Origin: an uncultured Bdellovibrionales bacterium
GTDB lineage: Bacteria; Bdellovibrionota; Bdellovibrionia; Bdellovibrionales; UBA1609
NCBI GenBank assembly: GCA_938001965.1
Contig: CALLBC010000007.1
Coordinates: forward strand, 9,709-73,708
DNA length: 64,000 nucleotides
Direction of reading: 5' to 3'
Shown one piece after another: positions 8,976 to 50,270 of the stretch. Below the pieces are notes generated by a model. That model searched no databases and had not been told where the DNA came from. It was given only the letters and a program-made list of their open reading frames with translations. Position numbers and translations under genes: made by a program. Each line of letters begins with the position of its first letter. Position 1 is the first letter of the stretch.

Positions 8976-9451
8976 AATTTTATTTTTAAAAATTTATATA
9001 AATTAGCAAGAACCCATAATGGCCCTATAAGTAAAAAATTTAAATCATGAGCAAAAGAAGGCTTCTTCCCTTCATGTTTATGGCCCAATAATTGAGCAGC
9101 CCAAGTCATCAAATACATAACCATAAGTATATACAAATATTTTACTCCATAATTACCCTTCAACAACAATGAAATTAATAGCATTAGTATGAGCTGCAAA
9201 GCTATGCCGATATAGAGTTTAAAGTTATTAAAACGAACGTAAGCAATTAACATAGCTACTACCAGGAGTGTCCCCCAGCCAAGGTACTTACTTAAAAATA
9301 AATCTGGAAACGGAAGAAAACAAGCTAAACCAATAGTTGCATGAAGATTCAATGGAACAGAAATTTCATGAATCCATATATTAATTTTTTTTGTATGACT
9401 ATTTGAGTATTCCTTTAGATATTCATAAATTTTATTTTTTGCAAAAATCAT
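8972..9451 (-). CDS. DUF962 / Mpo1-like membrane protein (family of the yeast 2-hydroxy fatty-acid dioxygenase)
   Basis: 159 aa. H.....N.WIHEISVPL near the N-terminus, 3-4 TM helices, then GHKHEGKKPSF...LLIGPLWVL. This matches the DUF962 pattern as I recall it. Lies 21 nt downstream of the GH3 gene on the same strand. Confidence 0.65.
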   Translation of the reverse strand: MIFAKNKIYEYLKEYSNSHTKKINIWIHEISVPLNLHATIGLACFLPFPDLFLSKYLGWGTLLVVAMLIAYVRFNNFKLYIGIALQLILMLLISLLLKGNYGVKYLYILMVMYLMTWAAQLLGHKHEGKKPSFAHDLNFLLIGPLWVLANLYKFLKIKF

Positions 9452-9472
9452 TCTATCTCTACTTTATCTTTT

Positions 9473-13601: not shown

Positions 13602-14518
13602 TCAGTGTACACCTTATAGCCAGGCATTGAATGAACCTTTTTAACCCACTTCAACCAATGCTCTTTACTGCCAATATTATAACTATCTTCATTAATTTTG
13701 TGCAAATGATAATGTGAGATATACGGAAGTATATGATGTAAATTATGTTTGTCAAAATTAAGTAATACATGACGGCCAATAAATTTTGCTAATATTAGAT
13801 CTTTTGTTACACGCTTATGGTCCCACACAGCTAAAGGAAATTCCTTTTTGTCAATTTTGTTACAATCCAATAAGTTATGTTGACTGATAATAAGAAAGTC
13901 TGAAGTAAATAAATACAAAAAAAATGGTAATAAAAACAACTTAAAATATATTGATTCTAAAAAGATTAATAGCAACAAATGACTACTTACCAAAAATACA
14001 AAAGATAAACTGATTGTTGGCTTTTTATTTTTATTGATCTTAGGTTTCACCGTTTTTAATAACACTACTAAAAAACTAAATATTGGAATATGTAACTTCC
14101 AACAAAAATTTAATATTTTAATATTCATTGAGCTTATCTGATCAGACCTTGGAAAATTTAAGGAAGGATCTCTATCTCTATCTCCCACCCATATATGATG
14201 ATCTAAATGACTTTGTTTCCAATCCTGAAATGAAAGAAGGCTCAATACAGAGCATAAATGCCCAACTAAAAGGTTCAATTTTTTATTTTTAAAAAATGTA
14301 TCATGAGCACAAGAGTGTAAGGTGCTGAACTGTCTCCAGACACATACAAAGATCAATAACTGGCCCACAAACCATGTGATTAAACTTTCACTATGGCTTA
14401 AATAAAGACCTAAACCAATAAGCATTAACTCTAGGAATAATTGCCTAATCGCATTTAAATTATTAATTTTTAAATTCCTGGTCTCTTGCTTTAATTTTAA
14501 ATATTGCTTTTTATCCAA
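13598..14518 (-). CDS. Membrane fatty-acid desaturase/hydroxylase family protein (three His boxes)
   Basis: 306 aa. His boxes HSCAHD, HLDHH and HNLHH are separated by hydrophobic helices. Probable TTG start 3 nt after the Rieske stop, with GGAG upstream. ATGA overlap with the P450 start (13598-13601). Confidence 0.8.
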   Translation of the reverse strand: MDKKQYLKLKQETRNLKINNLNAIRQLFLELMLIGLGLYLSHSESLITWFVGQLLIFVCVWRQFSTLHSCAHDTFFKNKKLNLLVGHLCSVLSLLSFQDWKQSHLDHHIWVGDRDRDPSLNFPRSDQISSMNIKILNFCWKLHIPIFSFLVVLLKTVKPKINKNKKPTISLSFVFLVSSHLLLLIFLESIYFKLFLLPFFLYLFTSDFLIISQHNLLDCNKIDKKEFPLAVWDHKRVTKDLILAKFIGRHVLLNFDKHNLHHILPYISHYHLHKINEDSYNIGSKEHWLKWVKKVHSMPGYKVYTE

Positions 14519-14521
14519 ATC

Positions 14522-15538
14522 TTAGAGCTCCATAAAGAATCTAAATTCTTTCCCTTCGTATTTTTCACGAGATAAAGACAAACTATGCTCATATAGCCTT
14601 ATCACTTCACTTATAGCTTTATCAGTTACAAAGAATACAGAAGCTGGATAATTATATTCTTCCAATTGCTGGGCTTGATTTTCAAGTATAACAATATCTT
14701 GATCTAGTATTTTTTTCGTATATTGTTTTAATATTAACTTCAAAAGTGGACCACCAAAGCCTCCCTTAAAACTTATAAATGTATGTACTTTAGATAATAA
14801 TTTAGAAATTGGCGTAATTACTGAGACAGTTGTTACCTCCAAAGATCCAATTGTATAAATAACCTTAACGTTATACGGTGCTATATACTCATCAATATGG
14901 GTTATAGGTTTGTTTTTTGGGTTTAAAAATTTATTTAAAGCTGATTCACTAGAGTTTTCACCAATGGTCTCTATTTTCACTGAACTCTCATCGCTTTTAA
15001 CTAATACTTCAACTTTTTTATGAGATTTTCCACGAAAAAGACCCTTATGAACGACTCCTGTATGCGCAGTATCAATAAAATTTTCTATAATAGTTAATGC
15101 TGGAGCTTTAATTTCATACTTAAAAGTCAGATTATTTTTACTTTGCTCATCATATAAAAAATAGTTTGGAGTATCATGATCATTATTTGATAAATTAACC
15201 CAAATATAATCATATTTATCGATGTGATGCTTATAAGACTTAACTTTTCTTCTAGGTAAGCGATCTCCCTCTGGAACAGAAGGCACCTTAACACATGCTC
15301 CAGAAATATCAAAACTAGCACCATGGTATGGACAAACTAAGCAGTCATTCTTAACCCAACCTTGAGACAGGCTCACATGGCGATGGATGCACTTATCTTG
15401 TAATATTGATATTTTATTCGCTTTATTTTTAAATATAACAAGCTTAGTGTCTGCAATGGTCAGTCCAACTGGTTTATTTTTAATTTCTCTAGCTGCACAG
15501 ACTAACATCCAGCCAGAGTCTTTATTAACAGAGTACAT
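14522..15538 (-). CDS. Rieske [2Fe-2S] non-heme iron oxygenase (PaO/KshA-like alpha subunit type)
   Basis: 338 aa. Rieske motif CIHRH...CPYHG. Mononuclear iron motif ENFIDTAHTGVVH (D-x2-H-x4-H). Confidence 0.85.
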   Translation of the reverse strand: MYSVNKDSGWMLVCAAREIKNKPVGLTIADTKLVIFKNKANKISILQDKCIHRHVSLSQGWVKNDCLVCPYHGASFDISGACVKVPSVPEGDRLPRRKVKSYKHHIDKYDYIWVNLSNNDHDTPNYFLYDEQSKNNLTFKYEIKAPALTIIENFIDTAHTGVVHKGLFRGKSHKKVEVLVKSDESSVKIETIGENSSESALNKFLNPKNKPITHIDEYIAPYNVKVIYTIGSLEVTTVSVITPISKLLSKVHTFISFKGGFGGPLLKLILKQYTKKILDQDIVILENQAQQLEEYNYPASVFFVTDKAISEVIRLYEHSLSLSREKYEGKEFRFFMEL

Positions 15539-15557
15539 ATATTTCCAATTAAGTTAT

Positions 15558-16337
15558 TTAAGCTCTCTTAGAAAATAATACCTTTAATTTTGTCTTTCTA
15601 GTAACATTTTTTATGATCCTTCTAAAAATCAAGTCCAAAGTGAACTCACCAATACAAACTAGCTCATCACCACTTCTCCAATTAGGATTTTTTTCTTGAA
15701 AAAACGCAATTTTTTTATTCTTCTTTAAAAGGCCTTCAGTAATTTCACATAAGCCTGCTTTTAAACAGTCTTTTTCAGCACTGGAATCAGTTGGAAACTC
15801 AATACACCCTGTAGATCTATTATAATTACTAGAATATAAGTACTCTCCACAGCTATCAATAATATTTTTAATCTCAGCAGGTGTATTTTTGAAAGGGTGC
15901 GGATAATAATTAACAAAGTTATTCGCTAATAATAAATAAGTTTTATAACCTTTTGAAATCAAATTCCAATAAATCTTCGTAAAAGGACTTTTCAACTTCT
16001 GCTTAAGTAAGTATTTTGAAAATTCAGACCCTAAATTATTATTACCCCAATATCTCTTATCTACAATAGTGTCACCACTAAATATAAATTTAGCTTTAAA
16101 TTGAGCTAAGGAAAATACTTTAGCTGTGCTGAAACCAACGATTTCGTCTGTTAAAATATCAATTATTAAAAAAACAAAAGATTTATCATTTAAGTCTGTT
16201 ATGAACTGATTGTAATTCACATTAGAATAGTATGACTGAAAAAGTCCCCACATATCAGCTATATGTGACTCACTGAGTTTAGATATGGGCACAGTTGTAT
16301 TTCTTGTTTTCATTGAAATTATTCCATAAATTGTCAT
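15558..16337 (-). CDS. Hypothetical protein, first gene of the operon; possibly a GNAT-fold acyltransferase
   Basis: 259 aa, no signal peptide. The functional guess rests only on a loose GNAT-like pattern (..IVGFSTAKV...FIFSGDTIVDKRYWGNN..G). No catalytic motif recognised with confidence. Confidence 0.4.
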   Translation of the reverse strand: MTIYGIISMKTRNTTVPISKLSESHIADMWGLFQSYYSNVNYNQFITDLNDKSFVFLIIDILTDEIVGFSTAKVFSLAQFKAKFIFSGDTIVDKRYWGNNNLGSEFSKYLLKQKLKSPFTKIYWNLISKGYKTYLLLANNFVNYYPHPFKNTPAEIKNIIDSCGEYLYSSNYNRSTGCIEFPTDSSAEKDCLKAGLCEITEGLLKKNKKIAFFQEKNPNWRSGDELVCIGEFTLDLIFRRIIKNVTRKTKLKVLFSKRA

Positions 16338-25263: not shown

Positions 25264-26058
25264 ATGAAAACATACCTAAACCTAATTGAACATGTTTTAA
25301 AACACGGTGAGGAAAAAACTGACCGCACAGGAACAGGAACTAAAAGTGTTTTTGGGCACCAAATGAGATTCAACATTGAAAAAAGTTTCCCTTTATTAAC
25401 CACTAAAAAAGTTCATCTAAAGTCTATTATTCATGAACTTCTTTGGTTCTTAAGTGGTGACACTAATATTAAATACTTAAAAGATAATAAAGTTCGCATA
25501 TGGGATGAGTGGGCCGATGAAAACGGTGATCTTGGCCGAGTGTATGGTGCTCAGTGGAGGTCATGGCAGTCTCCTGATGGAAGCACCGTTGACCAAATTT
25601 CAAATGTCATTGATCAGATTAAAAACAACCCTGACTCTAGACGACTATTAGTAGTTGCCTATAACCCAGGAGAAGTTTCCACAATGGCTCTACCTCCTTG
25701 TCATGCTTTTTTTCAATTTTATGTAAGTAATGGTAAACTTTCCTGCCAACTTTACCAAAGAAGTGCTGATATTTTTCTTGGAGTTCCATTTAACATTGCT
25801 AGTTACGCATTACTAACAATGATGATTGCTCAAGTTTGCGATTTAGTTCCCCACGAGTTTATCCACACTTTAGGTGATGCACATATTTATAGTAATCATA
25901 TGGATCAAGTAAAACTACAACTTTCTAGAGACACTCGCGAACTTCCTAAGATGTCTATTAATCCAGATGTAAAAAGTATTTTTGACTTTAAATATGAAGA
26001 CTTTCAATTGTTAGACTATAACCCTCATCCTGGCATTAAAGGTCGGGTGGCTGTATGA
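25264..26058 (+). CDS. thyA: Thymidylate synthase (ThyA)
   Basis: 264 aa. DRTGTGT, active-site [12 protein letters not shown], and the C-terminus ...VAV. Confidence 0.97.
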
Positions 26059-26552
26059 GTGAAATTACTTTTTCACATATAGTTGCAGCTTCTGAAAACA
26101 ATGTGATTGGCTGCGACGGCGGTTTACCTTGGGATATTCCTGAAGATATGAAGTTTTTCCGCGATAAAACAAAGGGAAAAATAATTATTATGGGGCGCAA
26201 AACTTTTGAGTCTGTTGGGCATCCACTCCCTAAAAGACTCAACTTAGTTGTAACTCGTCAAAAAGACTATAAAGCTGAAGGCGCAGAAGTGTTTCCAAGC
26301 CTTGAAGCAGCTATGGAGTACGCAAAAACTCGTATTAGTGATTATGATTCAGAAATTTTTGTTATCGGCGGTGGTGAGATTTACAAACAAAGCCTTAACC
26401 AAATGAATACAGTGTATTTAACCCGAATTCATAAAACAATTGATGGCGATGCTTATTATCCAGAAATCGATGAAGCGCAATTTGAGCTGTCAGCTAAAGA
26501 AGACCGAACAGAGCCTGTTCCCTTTAGCTTTTTAACTTATAAAAAAATATAA
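26055..26552 (+). CDS. folA: Dihydrofolate reductase
   Basis: 165 aa. [17 protein letters not shown] and VIGGGEIY motifs. ATGA overlap with thyA. Confidence 0.95.
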
Positions 26553-26595
26553 TTACCCAAAAACCTTTACATCTTATTAATAAATAGATATTGAG

Positions 26596-26747
26596 AGAGT
26601 TAAGTACCAGGGGCGCCTATAGGCTGAGATGGTTTTAACCAGTCCCTTTGAACCTGATCTGGTTAATACCAGCGTAGGAAGAGTGCAAAACAATAGGGAT
26701 CCCTCCCTAATGTCGCCCTACTCCTATGATTTTATATAGGAGCTTAT
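26596..26747 (+). promoter_or_regulatory. TPP (THI-box) riboswitch with SD-sequestering expression platform
   Basis: Aptamer core read directly: CCAGGGGCGCC..GGCTGAGA..ACCAGTCCCTTTGAACCTGATCTGGTTAATACCAGCGTAGGAA (26607-26680). Downstream, CTCCTAT (26721-26727) can pair with ATAGGAG (26736-26742), covering the AGGAG Shine-Dalgarno of thiM (ATG 26748). Confidence 0.9.
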
Positions 26748-27566
26748 ATGAAACAAGTTAATACCGATACTTTATGGAGCCACCTCAACAGCATTAGAGA
26801 ACAAGGCCCTCTAGTTCATAATATTACAAACTCTGTTGTTACCAATTTTACAGCCAATGCTTTATTAGCCACAGGTGCATCACCCTTAATGGCTCACGCC
26901 CCAGAGGAGCTCGAAGAGATTGTTTCAATCTCCGATTGTCTTGTGATTAATATTGGAACTTTAGATGCTAAACAAATACTATCCATGGAAAAGGCTATTC
27001 AATTTGCCAATCAAAAAAATAATCCTATCATCATTGATCCCGTTGGTGCTGGAGCGAGCAAGTTGCGCACAGAAACTGCCATTAAGTTAATTCAACAATC
27101 TAATAACTGCATCATTAAAGGTAATGGAAGCGAGATCATGTCACTGGCTTCATTAGCCATGACCCCCTCTAAAGGGGTCGATAGCACTGCTACTTCTAAT
27201 GAAGCTTTAACTGCTGCACAAAATTTAATTCATGAAAATAATAATATTAAAGTCATCATAATTACTGGTGAAACTGATTATGTAATTTCAAATTCACAAT
27301 CATCAAGTCACAGCAATGGCCACTGTATTATGAGTAAAGTTACTGGCATGGGTTGTTCTCTCGCCGCAATTACAGGAGCTTTTTGCTCTAACACCAATGA
27401 TTACTTCAAAGCCTCACAAAATGCAGTCAACTTTGTGGGCCTATGTGGAGAGCTTGCCAATGAAAAATCCAATGGACCAGGCTCTTTTACTATTAGCTTT
27501 TTTGACCAATTACATAATTTAACAGACCAAGAGATTAATAATAATTTAAGGTTTAATAAATGTTAG
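26748..27566 (+). CDS. thiM: Hydroxyethylthiazole kinase
   Basis: 272 aa. VHNITNSVVTNFTANALLATGASPLMA and ITGETD..., GMGC motifs. Confidence 0.92.
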   Translation: MKQVNTDTLWSHLNSIREQGPLVHNITNSVVTNFTANALLATGASPLMAHAPEELEEIVSISDCLVINIGTLDAKQILSMEKAIQFANQKNNPIIIDPVGAGASKLRTETAIKLIQQSNNCIIKGNGSEIMSLASLAMTPSKGVDSTATSNEALTAAQNLIHENNNIKVIIITGETDYVISNSQSSSHSNGHCIMSKVTGMGCSLAAITGAFCSNTNDYFKASQNAVNFVGLCGELANEKSNGPGSFTISFFDQLHNLTDQEINNNLRFNKC

Positions 27567-28207
27567 ATCCTTTTAGATTTCAATTGGTCACAGACAGCCA
27601 CTTGATGGCTCACCTTGGGGTGGAGAGCATTGTATTATCCGCCGTAAAAGCGGGAGTTAACCTTATTCAATTAAGAGAAAAAAATAATTCAACCAGGGAA
27701 TTCATAACTCTTGCTAAAAAAATAAAATTGTTATTAGCACCACACCAAATTCCCTTAGTTATAAATGATCGTGTTGATGTAGCTTTAGCCAGTAATGCCC
27801 ATGGCGTACACTTGGGGCAAACAGATATGACTTACACAGATGCAAGGAAATTACTGGGCCCCAGAGCCATTATTGGAATAACTCTAGAAAACAAATCACA
27901 GTTACAAAAAACAAAAGGTGAAAACATCAGCTACTTTGGAATTAGTTCTATTTATCCAACTAATACTAAAAATGATGTTTCAAACATATGGAATAACAGA
28001 GACATCATGGAGGTCAAAGAACAATCTACTAAACCCCTTATTGGAATTGGTGGAATTAACACTAATAATGTTAGAGATACTTTAAAAAAAGGGTTAGATG
28101 GCATTGCCGTCGTATCAGCAATTTGTAGCTCTAAATCATTAGAACAAGTGCAGAACAACACAGAGCAATTATTTAATGCTTTAAGAGAGAGTAATGGAAT
28201 CCACTGA
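27560..28207 (+). CDS. thiE: Thiamine-phosphate synthase
   Basis: 215 aa. LIQLREK, INDRVDVALA..A.GVHLGQ.D and GGI motifs. Overlaps thiM by 7 nt. Confidence 0.9.
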   Translation: MLDPFRFQLVTDSHLMAHLGVESIVLSAVKAGVNLIQLREKNNSTREFITLAKKIKLLLAPHQIPLVINDRVDVALASNAHGVHLGQTDMTYTDARKLLGPRAIIGITLENKSQLQKTKGENISYFGISSIYPTNTKNDVSNIWNNRDIMEVKEQSTKPLIGIGGINTNNVRDTLKKGLDGIAVVSAICSSKSLEQVQNNTEQLFNALRESNGIH

Positions 28208-29999
28208 ATTTAACTTCATTAACTCCATTAAAAGTAAGTTTTCTAATCAATATAGGGAAAACTCTATTGGTATTGGCGATGACTGCAGTGTCATCCCATT
28301 AAATGAAACTACATATCAACTAACCACAACCGACTTACTTGTTGAAAACATACACTTTATACGGAGTAAAAGTACTGGCTTTCAATTAGGTTACAAATCT
28401 TTAATGGTAAATTTAAGCGATATTGCCGCTATGGGTGGATATCCAAGCCAAGTGTACCTTTCCTTAGCAATACCAAAAAATTTGAATGAAAAATTTTTAG
28501 ATGAATTTATAAATGGATTTCATAACGGCTGCAAAGAATATGACTTACCTCTTTTGGGTGGAGACACAACGAGCTCAAAAAAAGAACTAACAATCAGTAT
28601 AACTGTACAAGGCACTGTAGATAAAAGTAACTTAAAGTTGAGGTCTGGTGCAAAAAGTGGCGATCTTATATGTGTCACATCAAACCTTGGTGATTCCGCA
28701 ATGGGACTAGAAGTAATTATAAATAATTTAAAAACAACTAATAACAAATTTTTCTTAGACAAGCACAACTTACCTAAAGCGCACATTAAAGAGGGAAATT
28801 TATTAGCAAGCCTCAATGGGGTAAATGCAATGATGGATATATCTGATGGTGTATCCTCAGATATTAAGCATATCTGCAATCTATCAAATTTGGGAGCCAA
28901 CATTCACCTTGACCAACTCCCTCTATCAGAGGACTACAAGCGCACCTGTAAACTGCATAATTTTGACTTATATGAAAAGGCCCTCAGTGGAGGAGAAGAC
29001 TACAATCTTATTTTCACCACCAATAAAAATGATTATCCTCTAATTGAAAATTCTTTTTTTAGTAAATTTAAGTCTCCAATCACTATAATTGGTCAAATGA
29101 CTTCTAATTCAAAAATTACTTACTTCGAAAACAACAAACCCACTGCCAAAGTATACTTGGGCTTTGACCATTTTAAGGAAGCACCCTCCCAAGAACTAAA
29201 AAAATATGAATGTGTCATGAGTATTGCAGGCTCTGACTCTGGTGGTGGAGCTGGAATACAAGCTGATCTTAAAACTATTTCTGCTTTGGGTGGGTACCCC
29301 ACTACCGCCATCACTTGTATTACAGCGCAAAACACAGTTGGAGTACAAAGTGTTCACCCTTTACCTATAGACATAATTACCAATCAGATATCAAGTATTA
29401 TCTCTGACATAAATACTAATACTATTAAAATTGGGCTACTTGCCAACAATAAAATCATTAAAGCAGTTTCTGATCTATTAGGAAAACTAAATAAAAATAA
29501 TTCTTATAAAATTATACTAGACCCCGTCATGATCGCAACTAGTGGAGATTTGCTATTAGAGGAAATAGCAATTAATACTATGATTCAAAATTTATTACCA
29601 CTCACTTATTTAGTTACACCAAATATTCATGAGGCTGAAACTTTAACAAAATTAAAAATCACATCTGAAGACGACGTAAAAAAATCTTGTCTTATGCTCC
29701 ATGAAATGGGAGCGAAAAATGTTTTAATTAAAGGTGGGCATATTAATAGTAATTTAGCTACAGACATACTTTTTATTAGTAATACAAAATCTTTTCATAA
29801 GTTCACAACAAATAAAATAATAACAAAAAATACTCACGGCACAGGCTGCACATTTTCAGCAGCCATAGCCACATTTTTAGCTAAAGGACTACCACTTAAA
29901 GACAGCGTAAAGCTCTCTAAAAATTTTATTCAAAATGCAATTTACGAAGGATCAAAATATCAACTGGGCAAGGGAGCAGGGCCTCTTAAACTCAATTAA
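28194..29999 (+). CDS. thiL-thiD: Fusion protein: thiamine-monophosphate kinase (ThiL, N-terminal ~325 aa) + hydroxymethylpyrimidine/phosphomethylpyrimidine kinase (ThiD, C-terminal ~270 aa)
   Basis: 601 aa, single uninterrupted ORF. The N-terminal half has ThiL motifs: [60 protein letters not shown]. From about residue 333 come ThiD motifs: [35 protein letters not shown], ...[11 protein letters not shown]. Confidence 0.9.
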
Positions 30000-30004
30000 A
30001 ATAA

Positions 30005-32605
<2,601 letters not shown>

Positions 32606-32737: not shown

Positions 32738-33406
32738 ATGAATTTCAGCGACACACTTAAAAATCATATCAGCGACAAACACTTACTTAATCACCCCTTC
32801 TACCAAGCTTGGATGGAAGGAAAGTTATCTATGGACACTTTAAAAGAATATGCCGGCCAGTACTATCATCATGTTTCGGCTTTCCCGAGATACATTAGTG
32901 CTACCCACTCAAACTGTACCGATGCTAGTAAGCGAGAAATTTTACTTGAAAACTTGAATGAGGAAGAAGGTTTAAATAATACGTCTCATCCCCAGCTTTG
33001 GTTGGATTTTGCAGAAGGGCTTGGCCTCAAGGAAGGTGAAGTTAAAATAGCAAAGGAGAAAACTGCTATACAAAATGTAATTAAAACTTTCCTTGGTTAT
33101 GGAAAAAAATCTTATGCTGAGGGCTTAGCAGCTCTGTACGCTTATGAGTATCAAGTTCCAGAAGTGGCGAGCTCTAAAATTGAAGGTCTTGAAAAAAATT
33201 ATTCGATTAACGATGATAAAACACTTAAATTTTTTAGAGTTCATCAAGAGGCTGATATTTACCACCGTGAAGCTTGCGAAAAGTTAATTAATCAATTTTC
33301 ACCTGAAGAACAAAAACAGGCTTTAAAATCTGCCAGGGATGCAAGCTCTGCCCTATGGGACTTCTTATCAAGCCTACCAATTGAGAGCACTACTCATGCT
33401 GCCTAG
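32738..33406 (+). CDS. CADD/CT610-like heme-oxygenase-like diiron protein (TENA/PqqC fold); candidate non-canonical p-aminobenzoate synthase
   Basis: 222 aa. HPFYQAWMEGKLS..L..YA.QYYHHV.AFPRY, E-x6-H (EGLNNTSH), AALYAYEYQVP, H-x3-D-x2-H (HQEADIYH). This is the same ligand layout and block order I recall for chlamydial CADD. Located directly upstream of folB-folKP. Confidence 0.75.
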   Translation: MNFSDTLKNHISDKHLLNHPFYQAWMEGKLSMDTLKEYAGQYYHHVSAFPRYISATHSNCTDASKREILLENLNEEEGLNNTSHPQLWLDFAEGLGLKEGEVKIAKEKTAIQNVIKTFLGYGKKSYAEGLAALYAYEYQVPEVASSKIEGLEKNYSINDDKTLKFFRVHQEADIYHREACEKLINQFSPEEQKQALKSARDASSALWDFLSSLPIESTTHAA

Positions 33407-33419
33407 TAATTATTCCTCA

Positions 33420-33764
33420 ATGCATGTAAAGGATTACTCTGTGTACGTACACCTTGGTTGTAGTAAAGAAGAACGTACTCACAAACAAGAAGTACGCTTT
33501 AACATTGATCTTAGCTTCCCTGAAAATCCTCCCGGAGAAGTAACAGATCAGCTTAGCGACACTGTATGCTATTTTGAAATTTGTGAAATAATCAAAAAAC
33601 ATGTTGCTGAAAGAGAGTTTCAACTTATTGAAACTCTCTCTTATAACTGTTTAAAATTAATTAAAGAGAGATATCCGCAGCCCAACATTTCAGTGAGTTG
33701 TCACAAAGTAACCCCTCCTGTTGAAAATCTAAAAGGTGGAGTTGAGTATGTTTGTAGAGGATAA
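33420..33764 (+). CDS. folB: Dihydroneopterin aldolase family protein (FolB/FolX)
   Basis: The ORF track opens at 33339 but that overlaps the previous gene. In-frame ATGs at 33396 or 33420 give a ~115-aa protein (MHVKDYSVYVHLGCSKEERTHKQEVRFNIDLSF...TVCY..I...) of typical FolB size and pattern. The exact start is uncertain. Confidence 0.7.
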   Translation: MHVKDYSVYVHLGCSKEERTHKQEVRFNIDLSFPENPPGEVTDQLSDTVCYFEICEIIKKHVAEREFQLIETLSYNCLKLIKERYPQPNISVSCHKVTPPVENLKGGVEYVCRG

Positions 33765-34995
33765 AAAGAAATACCTCTCACTTGGGTCAAATTTAGGTGA
33801 TCGTTTTAAAAATATTGAAGGAGCATTAAATAAACTTAACGCCATTTGCGAAATAAAAAGAATTTCACCTCTATACGAAACCAAAGCTCTACTTTCAGAT
33901 ACCCCCAATGAAAATGACGATTTATTTTTTTTAAATCTAGTCATAGAAATTGATACTAACAAAAGCCCCGAAGACTTCTTAGCCCATACTAAAAAAATTG
34001 AACAATCATTTAATAATAATAAAATTCAACAGTGGTCCCCTCGATATATTGATATAGATATACTAACTTGGGATAATATATCTATAAAATCAAAAGACTT
34101 AACAATACCCCATCCAGAAATTCTCAAAAGATCATTTGTCTTAGACCCCTTAAAAGATCTTGATGCTAGATGGTTACAGCCTGCTCGAAAATTAAAAAAG
34201 AGAAACGCCACAATAATGAAAATTTACAACATCACTCCTGATTCCTTTTCTGGAGGTCTTGATTATAAGAATATGGATGAATTTAAGAGTATACTTTTAA
34301 ATGAATTTAATAATGGTGTTTCCTATTTTGACTTTGGTGCAGAGTCTACTCGACCAAACGCCACATATGTAGACGAATATAAAGAGTGGGAGCGTTTACA
34401 CCCCTATATCAATATTTTTAATAATGTCTTTAAAAATAAAATTTTAAGACCTAAACTTTCCATTGATACCTACAAAGCATCTATTGCCAAAAAGTCTCTT
34501 CAAATGGGAGCTGACTTAATTAATGATGTTAGTGGTTTAGCTGACCCACAGATGATAAATGTTATTAAAGATTCCAATTGTCAGTATATTCTTATGCATA
34601 GCCTTGGAGCTCCGGCCCAAAAAGAAAATATAATTTGTGGCGACCCTGTCACAACTCTATGTCAATGGCTTGAGAGTAAATTAGAACTATTTTTAAAAAA
34701 TAATATTCCGCTAAAAAACATAATCTTTGATCCTGGAATTGGGTTTGGGAAAAACACACAACAATCCGCCTTACTTATCAGACATATTGACCAATTTAAA
34801 AAATACCCAGTCAGGTTACTTGTTGGGCACTCAAGGAAGTCCTTCCTAACCCCGATAATTCATGACTCCTATAAGCAGCGTGACCTCGAAACCATTGGCG
34901 TATCACTAAAACTACTAAGTAAAGGGGTCGATATTTTACGCGTTCACAATACCCAAGACCATTTAAAAGTTCTTAAAGGATGGATGTATGCTTAA
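33736..34995 (+). CDS. folKP: Bifunctional HPPK (FolK) / dihydropteroate synthase (FolP)
   Basis: 419 aa. The N-terminus has HPPK motifs (YLSLGSNLGDR, PRYIDIDIL, IPHP). The C-terminus has DHPS motifs (NITPDSFSGG, DFGAESTRP, SIDT, INDVSG, DPGIGFGK). Confidence 0.9.
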   Translation: MELSMFVEDKKKYLSLGSNLGDRFKNIEGALNKLNAICEIKRISPLYETKALLSDTPNENDDLFFLNLVIEIDTNKSPEDFLAHTKKIEQSFNNNKIQQWSPRYIDIDILTWDNISIKSKDLTIPHPEILKRSFVLDPLKDLDARWLQPARKLKKRNATIMKIYNITPDSFSGGLDYKNMDEFKSILLNEFNNGVSYFDFGAESTRPNATYVDEYKEWERLHPYINIFNNVFKNKILRPKLSIDTYKASIAKKSLQMGADLINDVSGLADPQMINVIKDSNCQYILMHSLGAPAQKENIICGDPVTTLCQWLESKLELFLKNNIPLKNIIFDPGIGFGKNTQQSALLIRHIDQFKKYPVRLLVGHSRKSFLTPIIHDSYKQRDLETIGVSLKLLSKGVDILRVHNTQDHLKVLKGWMYA

Positions 34996-35701
34996 AATTA
35001 AACCCATTAAAACTAATATATATAACTTAGGCGATGACTTTAATAATTTTTTATATCAATCTTTAAAAGGTATTAATTTAGAAAATAAAATTTTAGCAAT
35101 TACCTCAAAAATAGTAAGTATCTCAGAAAATGAAATTGTTAAAAAAAATAGTATCTCTAAAGAAGAGCTCATTAAAAATGAGGCCGACATTTACTTAGGA
35201 AAAACATTATATGATTGCCATCTAACAATTAAGCATGGGCTTGTTATTCCTTCAGCTGGTATTGATGAATCAAATATTTCAGATGAAAATTATTTACTCT
35301 TCCCAAATAACCCATTTTTGTCTGCTAAAAAAATTCACAACCTAATTAAGTCATTATTTAATTTAAAAAATTTTGGCCTAATAATCACTGATTCTAAGAC
35401 TTTACCTTTAAAAAGAGGGGTTGTTGGAACTTGCTTAGCCTACCATGGGTTTTCAGGATTAATTAATAAGATTGGATGCAAAGACCTTTATGGAAAGCCT
35501 CTTGAACACACCCAAGTTAATATTTGCGAGGCCTTAGCTGCCGCGTCAACTTTATTAATGGGGGAAGCCAGCGAGCGACAACCTATGGCATTAATAGACA
35601 CTAAGGTGTCATTTAGTGAGTTTGATGCCTTTCAGGAGCAAGTTATTCCCATTGATGAGGATATCTACTCACCAATTTTCATGAAATTATTACAAAATTA
35701 A
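34988..35701 (+). CDS. CofE-like (F420:gamma-glutamyl ligase family) protein; candidate alternative folylglutamate synthase (FolC2 type)
   Basis: 237 aa. ITSKIVS, PSAGIDESN and GE..E..P motifs of the CofE fold. Overlaps folKP by 8 nt as the last gene of the folate operon. Confidence 0.65.
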   Translation: MLKIKPIKTNIYNLGDDFNNFLYQSLKGINLENKILAITSKIVSISENEIVKKNSISKEELIKNEADIYLGKTLYDCHLTIKHGLVIPSAGIDESNISDENYLLFPNNPFLSAKKIHNLIKSLFNLKNFGLIITDSKTLPLKRGVVGTCLAYHGFSGLINKIGCKDLYGKPLEHTQVNICEALAAASTLLMGEASERQPMALIDTKVSFSEFDAFQEQVIPIDEDIYSPIFMKLLQN

Positions 35702-36244: not shown

Positions 36245-36612
36245 TTTATAGGGTGTATTGACGCTTCACTTAGTCATTTAAAAACCTATCTAGGCTTATC
36301 TTCTTCGTCGAGTTTAAAAGTTTAATCCTCAACTCAAATTTAAACCAATCTAGTCTCTTAACTAGATGAAACGTCAACACACTCTAAACTAAAATACTTT
36401 TTATTTCTTTTGTTCTGTAAAAAATTTTTTCATTTAATAACACATATGTATAGATAAACTCTGTATAATTAGTTTTCATCCTAGCAAATATTTTTACATT
36501 TTAAAAAACTATTTCTAAAACTAAAGTCTGTTAATTCTTATTAAAATACACACCATAGTCTTGGAAATCTCAAAAAATAGGTCTAGTAATCTCATTTTTT
36601 AGCGTTTTTACT

Positions 36613-36639
36613 TAAAGCTACATAATGATACACCGATTA
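36613..36639 (+). promoter_or_regulatory. Sigma-28 (FliA)-type promoter of flagellin 1
   Basis: TAAA (36613-36616), N15, then ACCGATTA (36632-36639), versus the consensus TAAA-N15-GCCGATAA. Lies about 73 nt upstream of the flagellin ATG. Confidence 0.75.
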
Positions 36640-37732: not shown

Positions 37733-37842
37733 CTAGACTACAGCCCTATTATTTATATTCCGAAAAATAGTTACAAGTAATTAGTTTTTTACAGGATGTT
37801 TAAAACTTAACTATTCAGGACGAGTAATTTTAGAGGTTTAAT

Positions 37843-38676
37843 TTGCCAATAAGAATTAATACTAACATGCCAGCTATAAGTGCACAGACTAATCTGTTTA
37901 AAACAGATATGTCACTTGCACGTGCTATGAAAAGATTAGCAACTGGCGATAGAATTACTCAAGCCGGTGACGATGCCGCAGGCCTTGCAATATCAGAAAA
38001 TTTAAAAGCACAAATTCGTGGAATGAAACAAGCAAGGAGAAATGCCAGTGATGGTATTTCAATGGTGCAAGTTGCTGAAGGTGGTTTAAACCAAGTTTCA
38101 AATATGTTAATTCGCTTACGTGAGTTAGCAGTGCAATCAGCTTCAGACACAATTGGTGATTCTGAAAGAGAAATGGTCGATGTTGAATACCAACAAATTA
38201 AAGCCGAATTACAAAGAACAACTGAAGCCACCGAATTTAATGGCATGACATTACTGAACGGACAAGGTGGAGTTGTAGATATACAAATTGGTATACACAA
38301 TGATCCAAGACTAGATCGCTTATCTTTTGATGCATCTAAAACAGATGCCTCAATTGAAGCTCTCGGTATTGTTGCTGAAACTGTAATTACAAAACAGGGA
38401 GCACAAGCCAGCCTTGGTGTTATTGACGCCGCTCTTTTATCAGTTAATGGTATGCGAGCAAACTTTGGTGCTGTACAAAATAGACTTACCCATGTTGTTG
38501 ATAACTTATCGGTTGCTCATGAAAACTTAGCAGCAGCTAACTCTAGAATAAGAGACACAGACTATGCCGAAGTTTCTGCAGAACTGGCCAAACAAAATAT
38601 TTTAAAACAAGCTGGTGTAGCAACACTGGCCCAAGCTAACAACTTAAATCAATTAGCTCTGAAGCTTATTGGCTAA
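37843..38676 (+). CDS. fliC: Flagellin paralog (short type), TTG start
   Basis: 277 aa. (TTG)PIRINTNMPAISAQ, DDAAGLAISE, ...LAQANNLNQLALKLIG. Roughly 60% identical to the upstream copy by eye. AGAGG lies 7 nt upstream of the TTG. Confidence 0.9.
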   Translation: MPIRINTNMPAISAQTNLFKTDMSLARAMKRLATGDRITQAGDDAAGLAISENLKAQIRGMKQARRNASDGISMVQVAEGGLNQVSNMLIRLRELAVQSASDTIGDSEREMVDVEYQQIKAELQRTTEATEFNGMTLLNGQGGVVDIQIGIHNDPRLDRLSFDASKTDASIEALGIVAETVITKQGAQASLGVIDAALLSVNGMRANFGAVQNRLTHVVDNLSVAHENLAAANSRIRDTDYAEVSAELAKQNILKQAGVATLAQANNLNQLALKLIG

Positions 38677-45286: not shown

Positions 45287-46840
45287 ATGAACATACAGCA
45301 GCAGCTTTCAACTCAATTTAAATTAAAAGAATTTCGTTACGGCCAAAAAGAAATTATTGAATCTTTAATGAAGAAACAAGATGTTTTAGCCATAATGCCC
45401 ACTGGTGGTGGAAAGTCTTTATGTTATCAACTTCCAGCATTTGCGCAGCCAGGCCTAACCATTGTTGTCTCTCCCCTTATTGCCTTGATGAATGATCAAG
45501 TTCGACACTTAAAAAAATTAAATCTTAATGCCAATTGCATTCACTCAGGCATTGAGGACGATGTTAAAAAAGAAATCTTTGCCCATATGGCTGCCGCCTT
45601 AAGTAATAATGAAAGTTATATACTGTTTGTTTCTCCTGAGCGTGTGCAAAAACCCGGCTTTTCAGTTTGGCTAAAAAAACAAAAAGTAAACTACTTCGCA
45701 GTGGATGAGGCTCATTGTGTATCTAAGTGGGGGCATGACTTCAGAACTGAGTACACTCAAATTTCATTACTTAGAGAAATTTTTCCAGATGTGCCTATGA
45801 TTGCACTCACTGCAACAGCAACACCTATTGTAAAAAATGACATCAAGCAAAACCTCACTTTAAGAAAACCCGATGAACATGTTTATGGCTTCTATCGCCC
45901 CAACCTATATTACCAAGTTGAATTTTGTGACATTGAATCTGACAAAGATCAATTTGTACAAGGGGCAATTAAACAGTTTCCTGAAGGAAGAGTATTAATT
46001 TACTGTGGCACACGGAAAAAAACAGAAAGCTGGTATCAATTCCTATCCGTAGAAAATTCTAAGGTGGGATTTTATCATGCTGGCCTCAGCGCAAAGGAGC
46101 GTCATGATATAGAGGCCAAATACGCTAGTGGAGAAATTCGGATCCTCGCTGCAACAAACGCCTTTGGTATGGGAATTGACCACCCTGATATTAGATTAGT
46201 CATGCATACACAAATTCCAGGGAATATAGAATCATATTATCAAGAAGTGGGACGTGCTGGAAGAGACGGCAAAGACTCTACATGCCTAATGCTATATTCT
46301 AAAAAAGATAAAGGCCTGCAATCATTCTTTATTACTCAGTCTAAAGCTCCAAAAGAAATTAAAGACAAACGATGGCGTGCACTAGATGCCATGGTTAACT
46401 TCGCCGAAGGTGGTGAATGTCGTCACTCTGATATTTTAATATATTTTAATGATAAAGATCGTATTAAAAAATGTGGGCATTGTGATAGCTGTGACTTAAA
46501 GTCACCAAGACGAGTACTTCCAGTAAAAGTACCTTTTGCGATCAAAACCCCTGAAAAGAAACCAACAAAAAAATCAAAATATGACAAATTATTTGCTACC
46601 GAAGTCCCTGCTGATAAGCAATGGCTGATCCAGGTTCTTAAAGATTGGCGTAGAGACTACGCAGAAGAAGAAGGGATTCCTGCCTTCATGGTATTTAGTG
46701 ATAAGTCATTGCGTGACTTAATTGTTAAAAATCCAACTGATGAAACTGAGCTTGAGTCTGTTTATGGTTTCGGGGAAAAAAAGATTGAAACTATTGGACA
46801 TTTAATTCTAGATGTTTTGAGTAATGCAAAAGAAGGCTAA
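45287..46840 (+). CDS. recQ: RecQ-family ATP-dependent DNA helicase (short form with Zn-binding and HRDC-like C-terminus)
   Basis: 517 aa. Walker A PTGGGKSLCYQ, DEAH box VDEAHCVSKWGHDFR, TATAT, AFGMGID, QE.GRAGRDG, Cys cluster C..H....CGHCDSC. Confidence 0.88.
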   Translation: MNIQQQLSTQFKLKEFRYGQKEIIESLMKKQDVLAIMPTGGGKSLCYQLPAFAQPGLTIVVSPLIALMNDQVRHLKKLNLNANCIHSGIEDDVKKEIFAHMAAALSNNESYILFVSPERVQKPGFSVWLKKQKVNYFAVDEAHCVSKWGHDFRTEYTQISLLREIFPDVPMIALTATATPIVKNDIKQNLTLRKPDEHVYGFYRPNLYYQVEFCDIESDKDQFVQGAIKQFPEGRVLIYCGTRKKTESWYQFLSVENSKVGFYHAGLSAKERHDIEAKYASGEIRILAATNAFGMGIDHPDIRLVMHTQIPGNIESYYQEVGRAGRDGKDSTCLMLYSKKDKGLQSFFITQSKAPKEIKDKRWRALDAMVNFAEGGECRHSDILIYFNDKDRIKKCGHCDSCDLKSPRRVLPVKVPFAIKTPEKKPTKKSKYDKLFATEVPADKQWLIQVLKDWRRDYAEEEGIPAFMVFSDKSLRDLIVKNPTDETELESVYGFGEKKIETIGHLILDVLSNAKEG

Positions 46841-47124
46841 GCCTTCTTTTTTATATCCATTTCGCTATAAATAGCTTCTATACTATATTTAATCATTAAA
46901 TCAGCGATTATTTTTGGTTTGATTTTATATAATTCTGCAATTTTTTTAAGTTTTTTCAAAGGAGGCGCACACAAGCCACGCTCATAATTAGAAATAAACT
47001 GAGGGCTACTATAGCCTAATTTATCTGAAACGTCTTTTTGACTTAAACCAGCTTTAATTCTTTTTTCATATAGAAACTTACCAATTTCCGCATGCATTTC
47101 TTTTTTCTTTTTAACTGAAAACAT
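46837..47124 (-). CDS. XRE-family helix-turn-helix transcriptional regulator
   Basis: 95 aa. HTH_3 pattern (IKAGLSQKDVSDKLGYSSPQFISNYERG). GGAGGG RBS. 4-bp convergent overlap with recQ. Divergent from the 47522 cassette. Confidence 0.8.
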   Translation of the reverse strand: MFSVKKKKEMHAEIGKFLYEKRIKAGLSQKDVSDKLGYSSPQFISNYERGLCAPPLKKLKKIAELYKIKPKIIADLMIKYSIEAIYSEMDIKKKA

Positions 47125-47450
47125 TCAGCCCTCCAAATTAACCAACTTTTTGGCACCATCTTAAGTTTACTATATAAAAACAAGTAACTAATTATTTCTA
47201 CATACTTATAATCTGGTTAATAAAGTTATTTTTTTTACCCAAACTAAATAAAAATTATATATGAAATAGCTTATAATTACTATTTACTAGTTTACAATAA
47301 CAGCTAAATACATATTTCTAAAGATAAATTCACAAATAGATCAATATCTTTGCATTAAATACACATTGTTTTGTAAATAAATTAAATTTAACTAATTATA
47401 CATACTAACTGTCTCAATAAGACTCAAAGTAATAAATTTTATAAAATTAT

Positions 47451-47477
47451 TAAACTATATTTATTTAATGCCGATTA
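47451..47477 (+). promoter_or_regulatory. Sigma-28 (FliA)-type promoter candidate upstream of the HDO cassette
   Basis: TAAA (47451-47454), N15, then GCCGATTA (47470-47477), a 7/8 match to the GCCGATAA -10 box. It has the same TTAAA-N15-(A/G)CCGATTA variant as the flagellin promoter at 36613. The GC-rich -10 box stands out in a very AT-rich 376-bp spacer. Confidence 0.6.
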
Positions 47478-47521
47478 GTTACAATAATTACTATTAATCC
47501 GTGCAAATCATAAGAGATATT

Positions 47522-48238
47522 ATGTTAAACCTTAAGTTAATTATAATTGATGACGCTATTCACCTGCGTGAACAGAGTCAAATTTGTGAACTCTGGAGGA
47601 AGTGCCTTTGGGCAAAAGTTGAAAGCTATGAAAATCATTATAAACACTCAATTTTAACGGTGGGAACTGATGATTTTATTGGATCTCATTTAATTTTAGC
47701 CAATAAACTTCCAGGTGGCAAACTTGATCCTGTCATGATGTACAAAGCTGTTAGGCTATCAAAGTACAAACAGTTTAGCCTGCCTTTCGGACTAAACAAA
47801 ACGCTCAAGGGAACACACCTTGAAAACTCAATAATTCTGAATAAAATTTTGAAATCTGGTGATGAGGTTTCCTATAATTCATCTTTTACAGTTAACCCTA
47901 AATATCAAAATCACCCTGCCAGATCTTCATTTAAAGATTATATTTCTATTTTACTTTATCATTATAATATTGTTTTTAATGTTAAACAGTGGGTTTCAAT
48001 TGCAGCTATAAAGTATAAAGTTGATAAATACTTTTTATCCCTGGGAGCCAAACCTATTCATGATGCATTCTCTGTTAAAGCTTCGGACATGGAGCCCGTA
48101 CAGCTATTTCACCACTCTGACACCAATATAGTTCCTGACCATATTTTAAAAACCGTAAAAAAATATAAACATATTAGTGATTCATTAAAGATTTATCACA
48201 GTAATGATGAAGATATAAAATATAAAATAGTCGCTTAG
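47522..48238 (+). CDS. Hypothetical protein; possible GNAT/LuxI-like-fold N-acyltransferase (weak)
   Basis: The ORF track opens at GTG 47501. ATG 47522 has an AAGAGA SD-like box and fits the predicted promoter better. The fold guess rests only on loose resemblance of the C-terminal half (..EVSYNSSFTV...WVSIAAIKYKVDKYFLSLGAKPI..) to acyl-HSL / N-acyl amino acid synthase cores. Confidence 0.35.
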   Translation: MLNLKLIIIDDAIHLREQSQICELWRKCLWAKVESYENHYKHSILTVGTDDFIGSHLILANKLPGGKLDPVMMYKAVRLSKYKQFSLPFGLNKTLKGTHLENSIILNKILKSGDEVSYNSSFTVNPKYQNHPARSSFKDYISILLYHYNIVFNVKQWVSIAAIKYKVDKYFLSLGAKPIHDAFSVKASDMEPVQLFHHSDTNIVPDHILKTVKKYKHISDSLKIYHSNDEDIKYKIVA

Positions 48239-48260: not shown

Positions 48261-48908
48261 ATGAATTTCAAACAATTTAAAGAGTTATACGATCAAAATT
48301 TAAATAATGTTGCTAATGAATGCAAAGCATTTCCATGGGATAACAAATATGCATATTCAACTTGGCTAGCCAACACACATTACTACGCCAAAGAAACTCC
48401 GAGGATGCTATCCCTATCTGCTAGCGTAATGCCCGAAAAAAATAGAGCCGTTTGCTATAGGTTTATTAGACATGCCTGCGAAGAGATGGGACATGAAAAA
48501 CAAATTGAAAGAGATTTAAAATTTCTAGGGTATAAACTCAATGACCTTCCTATTACAAATGAAATGAAAATGTGTCATCGCTCACTAAGTTATTGGGGAC
48601 AATTATCTGAAAATGCCATTGGCTTTATGGGTTGGGTTGTTTTAGTTGAAGGGTTAGCTGTAGAGGCTGGCGAACATGTATATAATCAGATAATAAAGCA
48701 TTACTCACCAAAAGCAGCCAACTTCTTGAAAAGCCACTCTGATGAGGATCCTGACCATATCAACAAAGCTTTTATGGTACTTAAACAACTAGATGTTGTT
48801 GACTTGGAGGTTATTGCAGACTCAATTAATATGTACAGTCACCAGTATATTTCGTTCCTGAATTCTGCCAAATCTAAAATACAGGCCATTAGCAAAGAAG
48901 CATCTTAA
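48261..48908 (+). CDS. Heme-oxygenase-like diiron oxidase/oxygenase (HDO; 'iron-containing redox enzyme' family)
   Basis: 215 aa, helical. Candidate ligand motifs in canonical order: E-x2-H (CEEMGHE), Glu-rich core helix (LVEGLAVEAGEH), H-x3-D-x2-H (HSDEDPDH). The last spacing is also seen in the CADD-like protein at 32738. Confidence 0.65.
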   Translation: MNFKQFKELYDQNLNNVANECKAFPWDNKYAYSTWLANTHYYAKETPRMLSLSASVMPEKNRAVCYRFIRHACEEMGHEKQIERDLKFLGYKLNDLPITNEMKMCHRSLSYWGQLSENAIGFMGWVVLVEGLAVEAGEHVYNQIIKHYSPKAANFLKSHSDEDPDHINKAFMVLKQLDVVDLEVIADSINMYSHQYISFLNSAKSKIQAISKEAS

Positions 48909-48989: not shown

Positions 48990-49697
48990 ATGGAAGTAAC
49001 AAATATCACAAGTAACGATAGATCCCTATCTGACAACTTTAAGGTGATTGTATCTAAAATCACAGCCATTTTAAAACAACACGATATAACTGTAAAACCC
49101 TTTCACTCAGATTCGCTGCCAGCATTTAATAAGTTAAGTCCAGAAGATCAAATGCAAGCTATTCAACACGCACAAAATTACTTAGAGGTACTAAATTCTG
49201 TTAATGATGCAAAGTGGTCATATAAAGATGATTTACACTTCTTGTGGCGATCCCTTAAAGTTCTTAAGTTGACTCCAAGTTCTGATATTTTTGAACATAT
49301 TAAAAAAAATGATGCTGTTGAGATATTTAACCTAAACAACATACAAGTTTGGCGTAACCTAGCTAGTTTAGATCTACTATCTTACACATTAGAGGAAATT
49401 TATTGTTACTCTTGGGAAGACCGTTATATTAGAAACGAGCAGACTCTTGCCGAAATTAAAGTGGTTTTTGAAAAAATGTTCGCATTGAAACCTCCTGCCA
49501 CATACCAGTGTAATGTTCAAAATATTATTACAGAAGTGTTTAGCGAAGAAAAATTAACTATTAACGCTAACCATAAAGCTATTTGTTTACTGTTTGATTC
49601 CAATAGCAACCCAAGTGGCTACCTTGTTGTTTCTGACGCAAAAATATTACGTAAAAATAGCCTATTTGAAAAGCCACACAGGTTACATAGTGTTTAA
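48990..49697 (+). CDS. Hypothetical protein (possibly PAS-like fold), last gene of the cassette
   Basis: 235 aa, no signal peptide or TM helix, GAGG RBS. No catalytic or DNA-binding motif recognised. Confidence 0.5.
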   Translation: MEVTNITSNDRSLSDNFKVIVSKITAILKQHDITVKPFHSDSLPAFNKLSPEDQMQAIQHAQNYLEVLNSVNDAKWSYKDDLHFLWRSLKVLKLTPSSDIFEHIKKNDAVEIFNLNNIQVWRNLASLDLLSYTLEEIYCYSWEDRYIRNEQTLAEIKVVFEKMFALKPPATYQCNVQNIITEVFSEEKLTINANHKAICLLFDSNSNPSGYLVVSDAKILRKNSLFEKPHRLHSV

Positions 49698-50270
49698 TCA
49701 ATTGTGAGCTGCATAGGTTACCACACTAAATCCTTTCGCCTTCTTAGTTAAACTCTCATTTTCATAGGCATGTGGCTCATCACCTGGGAAAGCTAATAAG
49801 TCTCCTTTAGTTAGTTCATATTTGCTCTTATCTACGTAAATATTGATCTTTCCTTCTAAACAATAAAAGTATTCTTTTGTTTGTGAAATATGAGGGGTCC
49901 CTTTAAACCGACCGTTCGGCTTTAGAGTTAATAGATCTATCTCCATTCCAGGTATTGGATCAGGCAGTATTTTTTTTACTTCTGTATGAACTTTAGTTCT
50001 ATCTAATGTGGGTATATCTACCGCCTTAATATGCCTTACCTTAAGTTGCGGACGACTAATCAACTCACCAATTGATATTTGTAGTGCTCCAGTAATCTTC
50101 ATTAGGTTTGATAGCGAGGGGTTGCCGGACCCAGACTCAATATAAGTAAGTGTCGATCTTGGAATTAATGCCTTCTTAGCTAATTGCAACTGACTTAAGC
50201 CTTGCTTTTTTCTAATGGCTATAACGTTGAGGGCTAAATTCTGCCTAGTTTGCTCTAATAATTTATCCAT
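49698..50270 (-). CDS. XRE-family HTH regulator with C-terminal cupin sensor domain
   Basis: 190 aa. N-terminal HTH_3 (IRKKQGLSQLQLAKKALIPRSTLTYIESG..NPSL.NL.KI). C-terminal cupin (G..H.....EYFYCLEG......D......GD...FPGDEPHAYEN). Abuts the 48990 gene stop with zero gap. Confidence 0.8.
   Translation of the reverse strand: MDKLLEQTRQNLALNVIAIRKKQGLSQLQLAKKALIPRSTLTYIESGSGNPSLSNLMKITGALQISIGELISRPQLKVRHIKAVDIPTLDRTKVHTEVKKILPDPIPGMEIDLLTLKPNGRFKGTPHISQTKEYFYCLEGKINIYVDKSKYELTKGDLLAFPGDEPHAYENESLTKKAKGFSVVTYAAHN

Follow-up and report, generated by a model that had tools for sequence, protein, structure and literature searches.

The question raised by this locus is which transcriptional programme controls a small gene cassette, built around a heme-oxygenase-like diiron oxidase/oxygenase (HDO), in a 64,000-nucleotide stretch of DNA from an uncultured Bdellovibrionales bacterium, the whole of which is referred to here as the window. 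An earlier note on this DNA had read the letters at 47450-47477, in the spacer before the first open reading frame (ORF) of the cassette, ORF1, as a promoter for the flagellar sigma factor, sigma-28 (FliA), and had proposed co-expression of the cassette with motility. That promoter reading is supported at the level of sequence, both by the assignment of the host to the Bdellovibrionales and by recurrence of the motif upstream of ORF1-HDO units in other lineages. It is very probable that 47450-47477 is a functional sigma-28-type promoter, which would drive the cassette together with the flagellar, attack-phase programme.

The site comprises TTAAA (47450-47454), 15 nucleotides (nt; 47455-47469), and then GCCGATTA (47470-47477), all on the + strand. 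The putative -35 element is TTAAAC (47450-47455, TAAA core 47451-47454), with a C where the flagellin promoters have a G, and the putative -10 element is GCCGATTA itself (CCGA core 47471-47474). The class 3 flagellar promoters of Escherichia coli and Salmonella have the form TAAAGTTT-N11-GCCGATAA; the cassette resembles them in that GCCGAT-A accounts for seven of the eight positions of GCCGATAA and in that TAAA stands at the E. coli spacing (TAAA-N16-CCGAT). It differs from them in what lies downstream, an oxygenase cassette, the E. coli/Salmonella regulon being essentially motility and chemotaxis. The motif is intergenic, outside any ORF and on the same strand as ORF1, within a 397-nt spacer of 21% G+C; the end of GCCGATTA is 44 nt, and the first C of CCGA 51 nt, upstream of the ORF1 ATG (47522).

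The natural reference sites are the promoters of the two flagellin genes in the window. The sigma-28-type promoter of flagellin 1 (36612-36639, + strand), on which the earlier note relied, reads TTAAAG-N14-ACCGATTA, with TTAAA at 36612-36616 and ACCGATTA at 36632-36639. Reading both sites confirms that they share their spacing and the CCGATTA heptamer; the earlier description as TTAAAG-N15 is one base off (TTAAAG-N14 being the same as TTAAA-N15) and is otherwise exact. The shared CCGATTA variant is real, and rare in Bdellovibrio bacteriovorus, but it carries little weight as an argument, because the flagellin orthologues of close relatives have either C or T at the variable position. A cTTAAAG-N14-ACCGAT block is kept approximately 100 nt upstream of the flagellin orthologues in three related loci (L002-L004), and the -35 G is present in all the flagellin promoters of related Bdellovibrionota loci that are caught by a TAAA-N-CCGA pattern. 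Flagellin 1 is 97%, 94% and 93% identical to flagellins from metagenome-assembled genomes of uncultured Bdellovibrionales, which places the host in the Bdellovibrionota; two further carriers of the cassette have the NCBI names Bdellovibrionales bacterium and Bdellovibrio sp. A second sigma-28-type promoter, CTACAG-N16-CCGAAAAA (37738-37767, + strand), precedes flagellin 2 (37843-38676, with TTG as its start codon). It follows the B. bacteriovorus form, lies outside the reach of the TAAA-N15-CCGAT pattern and serves as a positive control for the matrix described below, of which it is the best intergenic match (p = 0.0007-0.001).

The simplest alternative is that the cassette motif is a chance match, TAAA being nearly free in a spacer that is 79% A+T, so that a lone CCGAT at the right distance would suffice; TAAA occurs 14 times in the 397 nt. 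Counts within the window already speak against this. TAAA-N16-CCGAT occurs four times in the window, compared with 0.56 expected, and none of 100 shuffles reaches four. Two of the matches are intragenic and owe their presence to coding sequence: the one at 54760 is antisense in an MFS transporter gene, and the one at 61367 falls in the Walker B region (LLIADEP) of an ABC ATPase. In the 7.1 kb of intergenic DNA, + strand CCGAT is present only at 36633 and 47471, and both copies have TAAA 16 nt upstream and a gene downstream. Dinucleotide shuffles of the 397-nt spacer yield the motif at P = 0.001, the shuffle probability for the spacer alone being 0.001-0.004.

A more independent measure comes from B. 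bacteriovorus HD100, for which Karunker et al. (2013; PMC3627812) mapped 140 attack-phase transcription start sites, with a FliA-like TTAAG-N16-CCGATA at 92 of them. A matrix was built from 87 of the 92 promoters marked 'FliA site: yes' in Table S2 of that work, aligned on the CCGA core, and the window was scanned with it against an intergenic background. The -35 block of the matrix is C-T-(T/A)-A-A-G, and its distance to CCGA is 16 nt at 59 sites and 15 nt at 25; the cassette site belongs to the 15-nt class, as does that of flagellin 1. The mapped start lies 14 nt from the first C of CCGA at 68 of the 87 promoters and 13 nt from it at 14, which predicts a start at 47484-47485 (+ strand), 13-14 nt past the corresponding C. 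Flagellin 2 ranks first among intergenic positions (18.5-18.7 bits) and the cassette site second (13.1-14.3 bits). The -10 block alone contributes 11.5-13.1 bits of the cassette score, the -35 block adding 1.2-1.6 bits in an AT-rich background. The top matrix match of the whole window is a separate site, CTCAAG-N16-CCGATAA (20.3 bits; 34830-34860, + strand), within a folK-folP gene (33736-34995) and 136 nt upstream of an F420-ligase-like gene (34988-35701); it may be an internal promoter or a chance match, approximately 0.1 such matches being expected in 128 kb.

Evidence from other genomes is decisive with respect to chance. Word-index searches with ORF1, the HDO and an ORF1 profile returned, apart from the organism itself, a single marine lineage (L081, L082 and L084, counted as one), in which the order ORF1-HDO-ORF3 is kept and the proteins are 49-59% identical to those of the window. 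The breadth of the family was revealed by an exhaustive search with ORF3, the third cassette gene, which gave 781 representative clusters. All nine of the ORF3-family members that were placed on contigs adjoin an HDO, and eight of the nine (L085-87, L088, L089/90, L091/92, L093, L095, L096 and L097) also have an ORF1 homologue and a gene for an XRE-family regulator; the ninth, L094, is partial, with ORF3 and a truncated HDO only. In the lineages found via ORF3, that protein is 31-40% identical to the one in the window; over the loci aligned, the corresponding range for ORF1 and the HDO is 19-59%. In L085 (5715-7357, - strand; GCA_023299885.1) the cassette adjoins a bufferin-type locus for a ribosomally synthesized and post-translationally modified peptide (BufA1, MbnB/TglH/ChrH, HvfC_N), a neighbourhood that may be coincidental.

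For each lineage the best matrix match in the 130 nt upstream of ORF1 was taken and compared with shuffles. Over the nine lineages other than the window, the individual p-values extend from 0.0003 to 0.22, with a Fisher combined p of 1.3e-10. Beside TTAAAC-N15-CCGATTA in the window, four lineages match strongly (p <= 0.003 in each): L084 with TAAAC-N15-CCGATAA, L085 with TAAAT-N16-CCGATAG, L093 with CTAAAG-N15-CCGATCT and L097 with CTAAAG-N15-CCGAACA. Three match partially (p in the range 0.02-0.04), namely L091 with TTAAG-N15-CCGAATT, and L089 and L095, in which a weak -35 precedes CCGATCA and CCGAAAA, respectively. The best match in L088 is TAAAC-N15-CCGTTGA (p = 0.13), and L096 has none (p = 0.22). 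With a strict pattern, TAAA-N15..17-CCGAT, four of the first eight lineages, the window included, are positive, and the probability of at least three among the seven non-window lineages is 3.8e-7. As a control, an upstream p of 0.005 or below was obtained for 5 of 10 ORF1 genes versus 3 of 103 other genes in the window and the loci, one of the three being flagellin 2.

Because the motif recurs at homologous cassettes in other lineages, chance is effectively excluded, and a fortuitous match is now a highly improbable account of the site. Base composition does not favour the motif in L093 and L097 (42-48% G+C), in which the inter-element spacer is unrelated, and the blocks common to all lineages are only TAAA/TAAG and CCGA. 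Recent transfer of near-identical copies, by which a single chance match might have been multiplied, is opposed by the 19-59% protein identities.

Several observations nonetheless weigh against reading the site as a sigma-28 promoter, and some of them favour chance. The matrix score of the cassette site is modest, lying close to the 10th percentile of the training sites (12.5 bits; median 17.2 bits), and seven intragenic positions in the window outscore it, so that the matrix alone is unconvincing. Two features reduce the score, the missing G of TAAAG in the -35 element and the T at the sixth position of CCGATTA. The G is present at approximately two thirds of the mapped B. bacteriovorus FliA-type sites, while TAAAC variants are known at the start-site-mapped FliA-type promoters Bd0209, Bd0161 and Bd0878; A occupies the sixth position in 74 of the 87 B. 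bacteriovorus promoters, and T (CCGAT-T-A) in two. Flagellin 1 scores only 10.9 bits, lowered for the same reason, and the matrix is therefore somewhat mismatched to this clade, in which flagellin promoters usually have CCGATC or CCGATT. Of the ten lineages, L088 and L096 are without a convincing match, and three more have a good -10 only. Global alignment of the window and L084 upstream regions with MAFFT does not place the two motifs opposite each other; AT-rich flanks make such an alignment ambiguous, and motif-anchored comparison and shuffles were therefore used. Taxonomy is available for only a minority of the cassette-bearing contigs. Finally, fliA was not found within the 64-kb window, and its presence in the genome is assumed from the two flagellin genes.

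The placement of the motif relative to ORF1 is informative in its own right. The distance from the first C of CCGA to the A of the ORF1 ATG is 14 nt in L091 and L097 and 15 nt in L093 so that, with the modal C-to-start distance of 14 nt, transcription is predicted to begin on the A itself in the former two and 1 nt before it in the latter. The chance probability of this near-leaderless placement in three of nine lineages is 0.002. In these lineages (L091 6192-6230, - strand; L093 1160-1203, + strand; L097 6109-6150, - strand) the ORF1-HDO mRNA is thus predicted to be leaderless or nearly so. The arrangement has parallels in B. bacteriovorus: by our own count from Table S2, transcription from roughly one in five of its mapped FliA-type promoters begins where the gene is annotated to begin. 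The motif was not found upstream of the separate XRE-ORF3 units of L095 and L097 or of the lone ORF3 of L091; judged from the loci compared, it belongs to the ORF1-HDO unit and not to the XRE-ORF3 unit.

The same comparisons bear on the possibility that the conserved block serves chiefly as an operator, bound by the XRE regulator with or without ORF3, its likeness to a sigma-28 promoter being coincidental or secondary. An orthologous XRE gene accompanies every cassette, and in three AT-rich lineages the inter-element spacer is also similar (TATTTATTT) and contains short A/T dyads. There is, however, no convincing dyad conserved across the lineages, L093 and L097 share the -35 and -10 blocks only, and the positions that are conserved are the information-bearing ones of a FliA-type matrix derived independently. 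The distance from the motif to the ATG, fixed at 14-15 nt in three lineages, accords with a promoter and not with an operator, and no similar motif lies upstream of the XRE-ORF3 units, where autoregulation would be expected. A purely operator role is consequently quite improbable, though an operator overlapping the promoter is possible and would be compatible with the sigma-28 reading.

It might also be that the sigma-28 promoter is real but minor, with a housekeeping promoter further upstream, or a separate promoter for ORF3, making expression of the cassette independent of motility. The spacer is long and AT-rich, there is an 81-nt gap before ORF3, and the transcript carrying ORF3 in L091, L095 and L097 is a separate one, with no such motif before it. 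A simple scan, however, gave no + strand sigma-70-like promoter with at least 9 of 12 matches in the spacer, and in L085, L091, L093 and L097 there is either little room for a second promoter or a predicted leader of nil or almost nil length. A minor role for the site is, on this evidence, unlikely. No Rfam family matches within the spacer. A - strand sigma-70-like site, using TCGGCA (the complement of the -10) as its -35, was considered and rejected as the cause of the conservation; its distance to the start of the XRE gene is 320 nt, and in other lineages that gene does not diverge from the cassette.

With the sigma-28 promoter as the preferred reading, the following sequence of events can be proposed. 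RNA polymerase carrying the flagellar sigma factor would bind TTAAAC and GCCGATTA and initiate near 47484-47485, giving an mRNA with a leader of approximately 37 nt that would cover ORF1 and the HDO gene and probably ORF3, since no terminator intervenes (there is no + strand terminator-like site between 47400 and 50400). Since FliA controls a large part of the attack-phase programme in a Bdellovibrionales host, synthesis of the enzyme pair would then coincide with that of flagellin, in free-swimming, flagellated cells. A second, cassette-specific layer of control probably comes from the divergent XRE regulator and ORF3.

ORF1 (47522-48238, + strand; 238 residues) opens the ORF1-HDO unit in every case. 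Its ATG at 47522 is preceded by a ribosome-binding site, AAGAGA (47512-47517, 4 nt before the start; the whole signal 47512-47524, + strand), and is assigned from gene callers and homologue N-termini (MLNLKLIIID / MNIKLIIID / MINLRLVIID); on the same grounds the GTG at 47501 proposed by an ORF finder is ruled out. Profile searches gave no Pfam, NCBIfam, PADLOC or PDB match for ORF1. A GNAT-like assignment of ORF1 is unsupported, an hhalign comparison with the GNAT protein encoded in the window aligning only an FY-x-LG-like stretch at 1% probability.

The HDO gene follows after 22 nt (48261-48908, + strand; 215 residues). Its product matches PF14518 with 33.5 bits (gathering cut-off 28.9; E = 4.6e-8) and has the diiron ligand set of three histidines and three carboxylates (E74/E75, H78, E130, H159, D163 and H166), the columns of which are invariant in eight cassette HDOs and align with those of a second, CADD-type HDO in the window. 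It is probably, to judge from these residues, an active oxidase or oxygenase. No NCBIfam equivalog matches the HDO, and its closest sequence match in the PDB is 3dde, a TENA/THI-4 protein of unknown function (E = 1.4e-4). The characterised HDO enzymes include UndA, BesC and SznF; the cassette HDO is like characterised members such as the CADD p-aminobenzoate synthase in its PF14518 fold assignment and complete ligand set, and is 21% identical to the CADD-type HDO of the window.

ORF3 (48990-49697, + strand; 235 residues), after the 81-nt gap, belongs to the large uncharacterised family described above; in profile searches it had no significant Pfam, NCBIfam, PADLOC or PDB match, and a weak hint of a PAS domain was not supported by hhalign. 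AlphaFold models were unusable (predicted local distance difference test, pLDDT, of 46 for ORF3 and 34 for ORF1). None of the three cassette proteins has an obvious signal peptide (N-termini read by eye). An unrelated helix-turn-helix (HTH)-cupin regulator gene (49698-50270) is convergent to the cassette.

The XRE-family HTH regulator gene (46837-47124, - strand; 95 residues) is divergent from ORF1 in the window; in all lineages that were checked, an orthologue of it belongs to the module. At 29 nt upstream of the gene there is a weak sigma-28-like site, GTAAAC...GCCAAAAA (47130-47161, - strand; CCAA core from 47153), with a shuffle p of 0.005, in which the G of CCGA, invariant otherwise, is missing. 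A single terminator-like hairpin is present near the spacer (47003-47017, + strand); it is inside the XRE gene, on the opposite strand, approximately 160 nt past a recQ-like gene (45287-46840), of which it may be the terminator. In two proteins, P0095 (306 residues) and P0104 (356 residues), an XRE-type HTH is naturally fused to an ORF3 domain, and in L095 (3210-4193) and L097 (3702-4789) the XRE gene directly precedes ORF3. By this Rosetta-stone link, ORF3 may supply the XRE regulator with its sensor or effector part; the arrangement suggests that XRE and ORF3 constitute a regulator with ORF3 as its sensor part, ORF1 and the HDO being an enzymatic pair.

The type of promoter proposed here is not new, because control by sigma-28 of attack-phase genes other than flagellar ones is on record for Bdellovibrio; the statement in the earlier note that a sigma-28-like motif is associated with attack-phase genes is borne out by Karunker et al. 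(2013; PMC3627812). Many of the FliA-type targets listed there are non-flagellar and include surface proteins, proteases, regulators and a P450-like operon, and several such promoters are active in attack-phase cells according to a toolbox paper of 2025 (PMC12622784). The cassette site shares with the HD100 promoters, in the same host phylum, the same two blocks, C-T-(T/A)-A-A-G and CCGA(T/A)AA, at 15-16 nt, and the HD100 promoters likewise control non-flagellar genes in addition to flagellin, often via leaderless mRNAs. It is unlike them in its -35 (TTAAAC, without G) and -10 (CCGATTA), and in its target, the HDO module. Among the FliA-type operons of HD100, Bd2587-2586 and Bd2102-2101 comprise two genes each, are leaderless and are of about the right size, so that as candidate counterparts of ORF1-HDO they are guesses from size only. 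Since the published regulon already includes enzymes such as the P450-like operon, it goes too far, in this phylum, to call such control of a biosynthetic module unusual, a description that is at most mildly justified. In the account given in PMC3627812, FliA of Legionella pneumophila and sigma-28 of Chlamydia are further cases of a flagellar-type sigma factor serving as a life-stage switch for non-flagellar genes, those expanded regulons being in other organisms and with other targets. What is new is the target, an unannotated, conserved and widespread module that is not described in PMC3627812, with a sigma-28 signature that is conserved with the module across lineages.

Other biosynthetic loci in the window are noted for completeness. 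A folate operon (32738-35701, + strand), beside a LysR gene (31718-32605, - strand) and just downstream of thyA, folA and a thiamine operon (25264-31726), has as its first gene the second HDO, which is of the CADD type (TIGR04305, E = 4e-85); the folate operon also contains folB, a folK-folP fusion and the F420-ligase-like gene, and suggests a CADD route to p-aminobenzoate. An apparent lipid or small-molecule biosynthetic cluster (8613-16337, mostly - strand) encodes two Mpo1-like proteins, a GH3-type acyl-amido synthetase, a condensation-domain protein, a P450, a fatty-acid desaturase, a Rieske/VanA oxygenase and a 259-residue protein of unknown type.

As to function, the idea that the cassette acts outside the cell or in encounters with prey is speculative. 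It is also conceivable, though doubtful, that the four genes constitute a previously unrecognised small-molecule signalling system, in which a metabolite made by ORF1 and the HDO only in the attack phase, owing to the sigma-28 promoter of their operon, would be sensed by ORF3-XRE, which would adjust gene expression accordingly. The arrangement recalls LuxI/LuxR logic, with an enzyme pair beside a DNA-binding regulator, a putative sensor (ORF3) that is sometimes fused to an HTH, and units that are sometimes transcribed separately; it is unlike LuxI/LuxR in that the profile searches revealed no relationship to LuxI, to LuxR or to an autoinducer synthase of known type, and the comparison is one of analogy only. 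A literature search for HDOs together with Bdellovibrio, autoinducers or XRE found nothing.

The module is without annotation anywhere, and the ORF3 family, despite its size, is without a Pfam model. The promoter gives it a testable regulatory address, which narrows when and where the product of an orphan diiron oxygenase should be sought, and, outside B. bacteriovorus HD100, would give the sigma-28 regulon a further conserved target that is not flagellar. The pairing of ORF1-HDO with XRE-ORF3 provides a concrete hypothesis, that of an enzyme pair plus a sensor-regulator. So far the module is known only from the Bdellovibrionota, no other taxon being named for a carrier; if the signalling interpretation were true, attack-phase cells would gain a chemical read-out of their own state or density.

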